DNA of 64,000 nt, from positions 107,570,001-107,634,000 of the forward strand of contig NC_043005.1 of NCBI RefSeq assembly GCF_006345805.1, given 5' to 3'. The translations under genes were made by a program, and so were the position numbers. The stretch is from Octopus sinensis (Eukaryota). The notes beneath the pieces were generated by a model, which was not told the DNA's origin, searched no databases, and saw only the letters and a list, made by a program, of their open reading frames with translations. Below, piece by piece: positions 2,625-48,289 of this stretch. Every line of letters starts with the position of its first letter. Positions within the stretch are counted from its first letter, which is position 1.

Positions 2625-2808
2625 TATTCTGTTGTGTATAGGGAGAGTCATTCTCTTTTGGTGCCTTATTATTTAACCTCTGTTGAAAAGGTTGCAAGAC
2701 GCAACGAAAAGTTTAGAAAATAAAAATAATAAGTGGAAATTTTACCGGTGAGTGTGTTAAATAATAAGGCACTAAAAGAGAATGACTCTCCCCAGACACA
2801 ACAGAATA
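2625..2808. repeat. Inverted-repeat element (Penelope pLTR-like) with a hammerhead-like spacer
   Basis: About 52-bp arms TATTCTGTTGTGT..GGGAGAGTCATTCTCTTTT.GTGCCTTATTATTTAAC and its reverse complement; the spacer recurs at 31005-31083. Confidence 0.7.
2680..2716 (+). ncRNA. Minimal hammerhead-like motif, U3-A8 core variant (degenerate stem III)
   Basis: CTG-TTGAAAA-g-GTTGC-aagac-GCAAC-GAAA-ag-TT-TAG. Confidence 0.45.
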
Positions 2809-3692
2809 TGCTTCAACACACGAACTCATTTAAAGAATCTTGCAAACCAAATCCAAAAACGAAATATATATTTGTACTTATATTTATATGCATATCTAAA
2901 TATATACACATGTACACTCACACACAAATATACACACGTACATGTGTGTTTGTGTGATATTTGTGACTGTCCTTGTGTATGTATCTTTGTAGTGGTGGGG
3001 TAAGTATATGTGAAATTTATCAATATTTTTATGTTCTGTAGACTCGCTTTCTTTCAAATCTCATATTGACATAATTTTAAATTTTCAGTTGAGTTTAATA
3101 CAGTTCATTTTAATTTATTTGACTTCTTTTATTATTTAGCTTTATAAGAATATGTTCATTGTACAAGAGAAAAAAATAAAAATACGGCTTCAATTGCTTT
3201 TCAAAAATTTCTATGTTAACCGATCCAAAAGCTTTTGAAATATTTGCGAAAAAAAAGAAAAGAAAGGAAAAAAGAAAACAATAATACCAAAACAAAACAA
3301 CATAATAACAAAGAAATACGTTAAACCAAAATGACAAAATTCTATACAATCTCAAAGAAGCTGATTAAACAAGGGGAAAGAAAACAAAAAAATGATTCAT
3401 ATAATGCAAGTAAATAATGACAAAAATATATAGAATAAAAGATCATTATTATTTCTTTTTCAAACAAATATATATATAAAGAAATAGAAAGAAAAATATG
3501 AAATTTAATCTAAATTTTTTGGGAAAAAGAAGGAAACAACAGAAAGAAAAAGTCGTTATCTGTTAATGTTTTATGAGTGAATTCTCTACTTCCGTATTTG
3601 TGTTTGTATATTGGTATTTTATGTTCTTTAGTTGTCTTCCTCTGTCCTTCATTGTCTTGTCATGTATTTCTTTTCTATTTCTCATAGACTTC

Positions 3693-3985
3693 AATAATAA
3701 TAATAATAATAATAATAATAATAATAATAATAATAATAATAATAATAATAATAATAATAATAATAATAATGGTAATATTCTCCCAAATAACATTAATGAA
3801 GACAATAATAATAACAATAACAATAACAATATAATAATAATAATAATAATAATAAAATAATAATAATAATAATAATAATAATAATAATAATAATAATAAT
3901 AATAATAATGATGATAATAATAATAATAATAATAATAATAATAATAATAATAATAATAATAATAATAATGATGATGATAATAATG
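3693..3985. repeat. (AAT)n microsatellite
   Basis: Direct inspection. Confidence 0.95.
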
Positions 3986-5019
3986 ATCTGTGTGTGTTTG
4001 CGTTTTATTTACATAGTATGGTTGAAAATGATTGAAATAAAAACATAAAACAACACAAAAATAAATCGAAAATATTTGATAACAAAAACATAATAAATAA
4101 CATGAAGAAACGGAATCAATTATCAATGAAATCAAGAAATTTATCTCCGCACAAAACCTAGGCATATAAACATACAATTTTGCTCTCTCCCTCTCTCTCA
4201 TGCTCTCCCTCTTTCTCTCTGTCTCTCTTTCTCTCTCTTTGTTTCTTTTTCTCTCTCTGTATATACATATATATATATATATATATATATATACAGAGAT
4301 AGAGAGAGAGAGATCAAAACAGTTTGATTCAAATTCATTGGTACTCTTGAGTTTCAAGCATGATGCTAGTCATCAGCCATATACATATATATATATATAC
4401 ACACACACATATATATATGTGTGTGTGAGAGTGTGTGTGTATGTATATATATATATATTATACTATATTATATATATATATATGTCTACTTACATACATA
4501 CATGCATACATAAATGTATGTATGATATATTATTTGAGTGTTCATGAGTGTGCACACGTTCATAGTATGTAACCGCCTATTATGTTACTGTAACACTGTA
4601 TAAATTTTCATAAACAATTTATTGTTATTCGATTCAGTTTCTTAAGATGGTTACTTTTTCTTTTTTTATATTTGTGTGTTTAGCACAAATGTTGGCTTTT
4701 AATTCAAAATAAACATATTTTGCAACATGTTTTCTTCTGTCTCTGTCTCTGTATCACTCGTCATATTTCTGATTATCTTTTTCTCCTTCACCATATCTAT
4801 ATTTTCTCACCTTCTTTCTTTTTCTCTCTCTCTCTCTCACTCTCCCTCTCTCTCTCTCTCTCTCACACACACACACACACACACTCATACACGAATATAT
4901 ATAAACAAATAGCACTTCTTTAACGACTATTTTTCTGACTGCAAGATTATTTAAAAGCATGCAGTATAATTTTATTCGTTTCTGCTGCATTAATTTTTGT
5001 ATAATTTTTTCAGAATAAG

Positions 5020-5545
5020 TAAGGCAAGGACCGCTTTTCACCTGTTAAAATAAGTTTGGAGCTCAAGTGTAATTTCAATAAAGAACAAAATAAGAACTTT
5101 TAACACTAACGTAAAAGCGGTGTTATTGTATGGGGCTGAGACATGGCGAACAACAGTTAAGTCAAATAAGCAAATACAATCATTCATCAACAGATGCTTG
5201 TGTAGTATACTTAAAATTAGATGGCCCCAACACATAAGCAGTATAGAGCTATGGCAAAGAACAAATCAAGTTTCGATTAGGGAGCAAATATTTAAGAAAA
5301 AGTGGAAGTGGATTGGTAGCACAATTAGAAAAGACACACCAAATGTAGCGAAAAGTGCTTTACAGTGTAAACTGGATGGATATAGAAGGAGAGGTATGCC
5401 TAAGAACTCGTGGCGGAGATCAACACAAAAGGAACTAGAGAAAGGGAGACATTCATGGCAGAGTATAAGTACAGAAGCCAAAAATTATGCGACATGGAAT
5501 TTAACTATAAGTGGCCTATACTCTGCGTTGAAGTGTTAAAGACAT
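5020..5545 (+). mobile_element. RTE-clade LINE 3' fragment
   Basis: ORF 5120-5539 LLYGAETW...FINRCLCSILKIRWP...WKWIG...RRRGMPKNSW matches the post-RT C-terminal pattern of RTE ORFs. Confidence 0.8.
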
Positions 5546-46603: not shown

Positions 46604-46817
46604 TTGCTGCGTGGAAGGTGTTTATAAAACACTTAAAAAACACACAAAAACCGTTAGATCCACATTTAAATTTAACTTGACAAAATATTTTCGTCGCTTT
46701 GAGACCGCGACATGTTCACTGACAAAATTCTGTGCTGACAATTAAATTTAAATGTTGAAGTGAATCTAACGTTTTTTGTGTGTCTTGAATGACTTATAAA
46801 ACCTTCCATGCTGCAAT
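46604..46817. repeat. Inverted-repeat element with a central hammerhead-like motif
   Basis: Arms GGAAGGTGTTTATAA..ACACACAAAAACCGTTAGAT..ACATTTAAATTTAA and its reverse complement. Confidence 0.75.
46679..46723 (-). ncRNA. Minimal hammerhead motif, G3-C8 core variant
   Basis: Minus strand GTCA-GTGAACA-t-GTCGC-ggtctcaaa-GCGAC-GAAA-ATAT-TT-TGTC (one stem I mismatch). Confidence 0.55.
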
Positions 46818-47740
46818 TGTTTCTGTTTCACATCAGGTCACTTGCTATGCAAGGAGATCTCCGTAAGTATAAAAATTACCCTTAAGAAGAGCAATATTTA
46901 AGAGGATTTTGCTCGTTTGGCTCACATATTCATATAATTTTTCCCCGCCGTTTAAGGTTCAACAATATTTAAAGTCTATATTATTATTTCAGTGCCAGCA
47001 ATTAAAATAAGTATTTCTGAGAGATGCAGTGGTTCCAGTGACCATAAGCAAAACTGTTACACGACGGCCCTGCAAAAGGAAGCACAACTGTCTTTGTCAG
47101 AAGTTATCCAGGCAAACAATCACGATTTACTCGCCACATTTACACTCTAATCAGTCGTTACAAACTAACAATAATCTTAAAGAAATTGATTGAGACAGCT
47201 TGTACAACTGTTGCATGATATTTAAGCTAGTAATTCGCCAATAGATTTCTATCAAAGAGATATTCATTGTCGGCTGCAAGATTTGCCTATTTCATATGTG
47301 AACATCGTCATCCATGTGTTTAAATATGCATAATTTCGGTCTTCTCTAGAGATTTCAATATGTATATTTAAATATGTGTGTGTGTGTGTGTGTGCTTCTA
47401 TGTGTATCTATATATATTTGCGTATATTTGTATGAAGGTATACATGTATCTTTCTGCATATATACACAAGTATATTTGTATTTTCAATATGATATAGTAC
47501 AGGAAAATACCTAAACTTGGAGGAAGTTATAATTATGTTACATATACACTTGCAGGCGAGTTGAATGTTTACATGCATATATTCAGACAAACACATACAC
47601 ACACATATATAATCACGCGCGCGCACGTATGCGCGCACACACACACAAGCACACATATATGTATATAATTATATATATATATGTGTGTGTTTATATTATA
47701 TTATATATATATATATATGACGGCCTGTGTCCCGTTGGCG

Positions 47741-47920
47741 ATTTTTTCCTCCGTCTTCCCTTCTTTGGATCTTTCCTTTCCTATGTTTCTGACGAAGAGC
47801 TCCGCTCGAAACGTTAAATCCTTCTTTCCTTCCTTTTCTGAGCGTCCAATAATACTATGCTTGTTCCACATCCTCACGTTGTTGTGTTTTCTCTTTGTGT
47901 TTTCATGTTTGAATTAACTA
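47741..47920 (+). mobile_element. Penelope pLTR-like element, copy 2
   Basis: Reverse-complement match to 44689-44870; flanked by TA tracts. Confidence 0.7.
47785..47819 (+). ncRNA. Minimal type-I hammerhead ribozyme motif (C3-G8)
   Basis: GTTT-CTGACGA-a-GAGC-tcc-GCTC-GAAA-CG-TT-AAAT. Confidence 0.75.
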
Positions 47921-48251
47921 TATATATATATTATATATATATATATATATATATATATATATATATATATATATATATATATATATATATATATATATAT
48001 ATATATATATATATATATATATGTATGTATATAAATATAAAATTTCTAAATATCTCAGAGAGATATAAGCAGTTGTGGAACGATAAAGCAGTTGTATACT
48101 GTCAACTTAACGTGACAGTCCCATACAGGGAATCACACCACTGCTATTTAGCCCTAGGAAGCATCAACGCTTCCTGTCGGCATTGACACATTTCCTGTGT
48201 CCTTATGCTTTCAAAGGGGAGACAAGCACCCCCAACAGCTAGGCCTGCAGT

Positions 48252-48289
48252 CAGAGACATGTTTCTGAGTCTTGCTCGTCATCAGTCTG
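48252..48289 (-). ncRNA. Minimal type-I hammerhead ribozyme motif (GUC site)
   Basis: Minus strand CAGA-CTGATGA-cGAG-caaga-CTCa-GAAA-CATG-TC-TCTG. Confidence 0.7.

Follow-up and report, generated by a model that had tools for sequence, protein, structure and literature searches.

A 64,000-nucleotide (nt) stretch of the Octopus sinensis genome (NC_043005.1, positions 107,570,001 to 107,634,000; hereafter the window, with positions counted from its first letter) carries eight type I hammerhead ribozyme motifs, which belong to five genome-wide repeat families, A to E. Families B (U3-A8), C (U3-A8) and D (G3-C8), distinguished here by the bases at core positions 3 and 8, are the 3' pseudo-long terminal repeats (pLTRs) of Penelope-like elements (PLEs) that encode a reverse transcriptase (RT) and a GIY-YIG endonuclease (EN). 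As a whole, the set is likely to be best explained by hammerhead families derived from PLEs, by foldbacks made at insertion and by selection for a paired 3-8 core. A preliminary description of the window had proposed about five high-copy retroelement families, and that is what we find. The window sits in a 2.72-Gb genome and is rich in microsatellites and pieces of long interspersed nuclear elements (LINEs); for the open reading frames (ORFs) found, the closest named homologues belong to Octopus species and bivalves.

All eight motifs are confirmed and lie no more than a few bases from the coordinates first assigned to them, with position 3 at 2683(+) and 31008(+) in family B, ~35091(-) and 35407(+) in C, 44821(-) and 47789(+) in A, 46719(-) in D and 48285(-) in E. 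They are carried by the following units:

2625-2859 (+): family B foldback, with a short inverted arm at 2625-2677(-) and a forward pLTR at 2680-2859 ending in the tail; hammerhead with U3 at 2683 and a decayed palindrome (AAGU instead of AAUU).
30181-31083 (+): 5'-truncated family B PLE, with a GIY-YIG remnant at 30260-30448, a microsatellite-like 3' untranslated region (UTR) and a decayed U3-A8 hammerhead (U3 at 31008; A13 changed, stem II broken).
34969-35246 (-): family C pLTR, left foldback arm, with a tail of ~33 nt at 34969-35000; hammerhead at 35058-35096 that has lost 2 nt at stem I/position 3, U3-A8 not being held by this copy.
35248-35494 (+): family C pLTR, right foldback arm, without tail and with (TA)n at its end; U3-A8 hammerhead with U3 at 35407, one G being absent from the ACCGGU palindrome.
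44686-44869 (-): family A solo unit; intact C3-G8 minimal hammerhead with C3 at 44821 and U17.
46596-46871 (both orientations): family D foldback, with a minus arm at 46737-46596 without tail that holds the G3-C8 hammerhead (G3 at 46719, C8 at 46714, U17 at 46683; a single stem I mismatch) and a plus arm at 46736-46871 with tail.
47720-47918 (+): family A solo unit with (TA)n flanks; intact C3-G8 minimal hammerhead with C3 at 47789 and U17 at 47815.
48030-48381 (-): family E, one whole circularly permuted retrozyme-like unit of 352 nt; C3-G8 hammerhead with C3 at 48285, long stem I, a C10.1-A11.1 mismatch and a predicted cut between 48256 and 48255.

Five of the eight are decayed members of their families. 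A strict descriptor, which required a paired 3-8, stem II, a perfect palindrome and a stem I of at least 3 bp, matched three sites in the window, both A copies and E, against none in 99 and one match in 1 of 100 local dinucleotide shuffles. A looser descriptor gave five matches against 0-2 in 20 shuffles, and in a 600-kb genome sample (60 pieces of 10 kb each, taken at round coordinates of contigs 1-18) six descriptor matches stood against 0-1 in 15 shuffles. Motif frequency in the window is hence above that of dinucleotide-shuffled sequence.

For each family, all retrieved copies were aligned to one natural copy, without a descriptor. The 3-8 pair is C-G in 46 of 49 copies of A, U-A in 85 of 94 of B, U-A in 48 of 50 of C, G-C in 134 of 150 of D and C-G in 35 of 35 of E, and the core NUGANNA...GAAA...UH with paired 3-8 is the majority state in all five families. 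The three pairings that had been read from single motifs are thus real at family level: A, B, C and E conform to the canonical C3-G8 or the published U3-A8 core, and D alone departs from them. The families conserve the core better than its flanks, since none of 50 non-CpG core columns varies in at least 15% of copies, compared to 53 of 596 flank columns (core differences 1.6-3.2% vs 4.0-8.4%). In each family, at least 34 of 35 copies lack G at position 17; A, B and D have U17 at the cut, in agreement with the NUH rule (PMC8495972; this and the other papers are cited for the passages covered). The palindromic stem III claimed earlier (ACGU, AAUU, ACCGGU, AAUAUU and ACAUGU in the families) was surveyed with a descriptor that required a palindrome, and it is also visible in the alignments made without that demand. 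Cofolding showed the expected palindrome pairing clearly only for C, and its result was not used. The G10.1-C11.1 pair is present in A to D, whereas E has mostly C-A (C in 29 and A in 33 of 35 copies).

Linkage to coding sequence was found for three families. Family C has a fixed 3' end and nested 5' truncations across 30 loci, and its copies continue into an ORF upstream of the hammerhead with an RT domain (PF00078, E=1e-8) and a GIY-YIG domain (PF01541, E=0.002, below the cut-off). Copies of B pass via a microsatellite-like UTR into a GIY-YIG ORF (broken copies), as in the window itself, where the GIY-YIG remnant belongs to the same element as the 31008 motif. For D, a slightly longer upstream pattern retrieved 529 exact copies with upstream extension; among 30 of these, nested extensions lead to a GIY-YIG ORF that ends 1.0-1.1 kb before the core (L389/L406, L386/L409), which rules out D as a purely non-coding solo element of 210 nt. 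An open 722-amino-acid D ORF (L408:1514-3679, its UTR interrupted by a 3.9-kb insertion) carries YVDD, a CxxxCxxC linker and a CCHH nuclease, and the 511-amino-acid D copy at L406 matches PF01541 with E=1.4e-4, at the cut-off. The CCHH motif of the EN and a CX2-5CxxC linker were read in the translations of B, C and D; the linker of C is of the long, Neptune type and those of B and D are of the short, Nematis type, a placement made by eye against fig. S2 of PMC8557442 and not by a reference tree. The pieces of the B ORF are 29-53% identical to D, and the alignment of the two pLTRs scores 61, against a mean of 21 and a maximum of 32 in 200 shuffles; judged by these comparisons, B and D are homologous in protein and in pLTR. 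They differ on both sides of the 3-8 pair and of one stem II pair. The preliminary description was therefore right about the link to PLEs, with RT/GIY-YIG ORFs adjacent to B, C and D, and wrong in calling these three non-coding, as they are the truncated 3' ends of coding PLEs.

PLE ORFs near some copies of A and B (L048, L118, L091, L411) are either on the wrong side or part of other families, and none served as a link. A GIY-YIG fragment at L411:7189-7548(-), separated by a LINE from an A copy 5.5 kb downstream, has no established link to it; its layout, we presume, resembles that of Hydra-clade PLEs. In A, B and D, many copies begin at a fixed point a short way upstream of the core, possibly a transcription start in the pLTR. 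In A this point falls in TCATTC, which we take to resemble an initiator element.

Family D occurs in thousands of contigs of four independent runs with four other organism labels (X11, X16, X18 and X19), in which neither G3 and C8 nor any other core base varies at 10% or more. The variants listed near the motif, mapped onto its positions by ourselves, fall in loops, for the most part at CpG sites, apart from a change in stem I that leaves a U-G pair in place. D is a high-copy family with a swapped G3-C8 core hammerhead, for which self-cleavage is predicted; the double mutation C3G/G8C partly restores cutting of a PLE hammerhead (PMC11167929). PLE hammerheads and the U3-A8 core have been published, and G3-C8 is likely a new core variant: in the literature passages covered it appears only in engineered mutants (PMC3884650, PMC8495972, PMC11167929), a coverage outside which lie the main survey of PLE variants and the figures, where it may already be recorded, and no description of families A to E was found in literature on octopus. 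The frequent 5' start and the tail end of D are complementary over 5 bp in a predicted fold (L096:1402-1610(-)), which overall is no better than shuffles.

The 3-8 pair was followed across the clade of B and D in metagenome contigs, where 76 related loci were found. The best 37 of these, scanned with a descriptor not requiring 3-8 pairing, gave six matches, all Watson-Crick at 3-8, on the coding strand and 120-305 nt behind the ORF, compared to 0-1 in shuffles; a looser inspection of 18 loci with downstream DNA added two more motifs. Loose matches without stem II were left out of the alignment, as was a candidate at L435:1512(+), 305 nt behind a related ORF, whose A3-U8 would be a fourth pairing and whose stem II is too weak. 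In the resulting nine motifs the pair is Watson-Crick throughout (C-G in four, U-A in four, G-C in one), and U4, G5, A6, A9, G12, A13, A14 and A15.1 are invariant. The clade covariation score, of a kind that relatedness inflates, is 0.873 against 0.239 when shuffled (reached by 0 of 500 shuffles), with slid controls at or below 0.2; two pair-level measures fall within the shuffles (86 and 72 of 500). In a protein tree of D, B and their relatives only, C-G and U-A are interleaved, which implies that the 3-8 pair switched more than once.

The motifs had been described as mostly carried in foldback elements. This was overstated, as four of the eight lie in three foldbacks, and the foldback does not behave as a carrier element. 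In head-to-head pairs of D and B one arm ends near position 224 and 262, respectively, and the other near 165 and 204 (overlapping sets, with duplicates kept), so that the 3' end of the second arm lies 57-58 nt earlier, and the 5' ends are variable. Across families the two fixed 3' ends are 33-58 nt apart with the tail on one arm only; in the C foldback of the window a 33-nt tail stands on the left arm alone. 5' truncation, an inverted 5' copy and a one-sided tail were seen in B, C and D, and no head-to-head pair was found among 54 matches of A. Since both ends of the arms differ from locus to locus, the foldbacks form anew with each insertion. The published pattern of PLE insertion has an inverted truncated copy and a tail at just one end (PMC8557442), and the one-sided tail has been explained by two internal RT start sites (PMC11167929).

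Family E stands apart. It is a unit of 355 nt with 43% GC and a long, bulged stem I, and while A to D may still be called minimal hammerheads, as all had been, that of E is of the canonical type in a retrozyme-like unit. Two of 28 distinct loci span 1.8-2.1 units in tandem, three more span ~1.25 units and the rest at most one; as a circle the unit folds at -118.9 kcal/mol, against -81.8+/-4.8 in 40 base shuffles. No match of 120 PLE proteins was found by tblastn in 30 E loci. In 25 of the 28 loci (five placed by end sequence, two duplicates dropped) the 3' end lies either at +166..183 (18 loci) or at +219..234 (seven) from the cut. The same two-end pattern as in PLEs suggests, by analogy with B and D, that a PLE RT copies E. 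Position 10.1 of E is U in 6 of 35 copies, likely by CpG decay. A-to-I editing is extensive in cephalopods, and it might turn the C-A mismatch of E into a C-I pair. A further family, G, is homologous to E (score 78, 20 shuffles reaching at most 34; L280:606(-), L282:4525(-), L326:449(+)); its core is U3-A8, its 10.1-11.1 positions pair, its palindrome covaries (ACAUGU/ACGCGU), and it occurs in foldbacks too. Copying of retrozymes by PLE RTs has been proposed in PMC7229834 and bioRxiv 10.64898/2026.07.22.740005.

We propose the following course of events. By analogy with PAc, the Poseidon element of Anolis (Frangieh et al. 2024, PMC11167929), the PLE enzyme would nick AT-rich DNA, complementary DNA would start at two internal sites of the RNA, hence the tail, and mostly uncut RNA would be copied towards its 5' end; such copying would yield solo pLTRs, truncated elements and foldbacks. 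The palindromic stem III may pair two copies and thereby build the active site, as PMC4209133 leads us to infer, with cutting presumably slow and assisted by a dimer or a protein. Selection on master elements would keep the 3-8 pair Watson-Crick and leave its identity free, so that sister lineages could fix C-G, U-A and G-C.

Several observations weigh against this account. The 5' ends of D copies show no accumulation at the cut (none of 30 forward arms in the 3'-query set starts there, and among 30 inverted arms, those scored out of 44 matches of a pattern search, 3 lie at offset 0 within a 22-nt spread). The 722-amino-acid D ORF matched no Pfam family, its RT identity resting on YVDD and on 22-28% matches to homologues of family C; no linked ORF was found for family A; and 10 of 18 clade relatives with downstream DNA show no hammerhead. 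In E the 10.1-11.1 pair (48266-48278(-)), which is normally conserved, is a C-A mismatch, and a tail sequence common to E and D or B was ruled out, as 206 and 491 of 500 shuffles, respectively, score as high. Finally, the copies behind the family counts were fetched as best matches, which favours young, intact ones. A pile-up at the cut site was also rejected as a trace of cleavage in vivo, because the query itself had produced the excess seen close to the cut in the foldback-query set; in B, 3 of 21 short arms end at 104-106, the cut being at 105.

The missing pile-up would be expected if the fold were kept for some role unrelated to cutting: it could bind the PLE protein, serve as a promoter or leader structure or mediate dimerisation, for example, and G3-C8 would then be nearly inactive. 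In PAc, insertion was normal with mutated ribozymes and the cut was not the end point of any RNA read (PMC11167929); cleavage by minimal PLE hammerheads is poor in vitro (PMC4209133), and C3G/G8C rescues only partially. We nevertheless regard such a role as unlikely: the pair that covaries in all nine clade members is described as needed for cleavage, the eight core bases listed above are invariant in the clade, and position 17 avoids G in every family. That all five families are short non-coding elements spreading alone, as foldbacks or circular RNAs, is very improbable. Most copies are indeed short, A and E lack a linked ORF, and D and B copies frequently share a fixed 5' start; however, B, C and D are continuous with RT/GIY-YIG ORFs at several loci, which refutes the idea for these three, and the variable arm ends point to foldbacks that arise at insertion. 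That the motifs arose by chance or through misassembly of a repeat-rich genome has, in our estimate, next to no probability left. Single motifs fold no better than shuffles (z -1.6 to +0.95) and homopolymer length varies among C copies, but the descriptor matches exceed those in shuffles, D recurs across the four runs, and metagenome contigs carry related motifs behind related ORFs; these findings already refute such an origin. No hammerhead family was assigned to the window among the 150 of 325 Rfam matches listed, and RF00163 gave seven genome matches from 74 scored candidates, six of which were viewed (L189-L194) and none recognised as A to E.

Apart from G3-C8 and the clue from E, the PLE-derived families represent a known phenomenon in a new host. 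Minimal hammerheads of PLEs, opposite-strand pairs and U3-A8 are described in PMC4209133, and the families here share with these the type I fold, a stem III that is palindromic or absent, G10.1-C11.1, the U3-A8 variant, U17 in many cases, copies in the thousands that are mostly solo, and opposite-strand pairs spaced 100-700 bp apart. The extra base after A9 of the published motifs is found in A, B and D and is missing from C. The passages of text and supplement covered mention neither G3-C8 nor octopus. U3-A8 covariation and a tolerated 10.1-11.1 mismatch (U-U) are reported by Perreault et al. 2011 (PMC3088659), again without G3-C8 in the passages covered. With the Neptune and Nematis PLEs, which have a C-terminal EN (Craig et al. 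2021, PMC8557442), B, C and D share a single RT and GIY-YIG ORF, CCHH, CX2-5CxxC, 5' truncation, an inverted 5' copy, a tail on one end and (TA)n flanks; they differ in the tails of B and D, ~57 nt instead of 30-40, and in microsatellite-like 3' UTRs of ~1 kb. PAc (PMC11167929) is alike in its tail from two RT starts, its pLTR hammerhead and its mainly uncut RNA template, and differs in being naturally C3-G8, its C3G/G8C form being engineered, whereas D is G3-C8 by nature. Like the metazoan non-LTR retrozymes (PMC7229834; bioRxiv 10.64898/2026.07.22.740005), E is a non-coding unit, within their range of 170-400 nt, with a type I hammerhead of canonical type, a bulged long stem I, tandem and more-than-unit copies and a strongly paired circle. 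Unlike them, E is found mostly as monomers and is known from genomic copies, and it has the C10.1-A11.1 mismatch and, in the manner of a PLE tail, two fixed 3' ends; 'tail' as a word is absent from the covered main text of the bioRxiv paper.

Published descriptors allow at most CUGANGA and UUGANAA, so G3-C8 families would be missed, and PLE clades scored as free of hammerheads may have them. A natural double swap at 3-8 passes via dead single mutants, which would imply long-term selection on the catalytic core, in contrast to PLE insertion in vitro, which needs no cutting; B and D are a matched natural pair for testing such selection. With the tail signature of E, mobilisation of animal retrozymes by PLEs, as has been proposed, can be tested from genomes alone. 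Tentatively, and with slightly less confidence than doubt, we put forward a combined claim: D, with ~20,000 copies in a Nematis-like PLE pLTR, would be the first natural, family-wide and catalytically active G3-C8 hammerhead, in a lineage that swapped its 3-8 pair through three states (a U3-A8 sister family in the same genome, C3-G8 relatives), and E would carry the two-start-site tail of PLEs, i.e. direct genomic evidence that a PLE RT copies animal retrozyme circles.

The 600-kb sample contains 12 motifs (three of B, four of C of which two are diverged, five of D, none of A or E), which extrapolates to ~54,000 copies of all families genome-wide (Poisson 95% 28,000-95,000) and ~23,000 (7,000-53,000) of D; a first look gave 2,109 candidates for A and 1,477 for E. 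Very high copy numbers had been deduced from the window. The numbers are high, and the density implied was overstated about sixfold (8 per 64 kb vs 12 per 600 kb).

Among minor observations, the 35 nt at 50996-51030(-) that match the family C query at its 3' end read as (TA)n and are probably no real fragment. Tandem repeats of 184 nt (38680-39125), 66 nt (45460-45659), 145 nt (63371-63663) and 206 nt (14469-14873) occur in the window; the 184-nt unit recurs at other loci and has the look of a short interspersed nuclear element. The region 18808-24114(+) holds two neighbouring non-LTR RT elements (PF00078) whose C-terminal part has a CCHC and PD..D motif, with a similar fragment at 7894-8691(-); going by that motif, we assume that they resemble LINEs with a restriction-like endonuclease. 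Further C3-G8 hammerhead families were seen in flanks and in the Rfam search (L113:2375, L171:2546, L249:1273, L371:2323, L189-L195), and the genome has at least eight hammerhead families.

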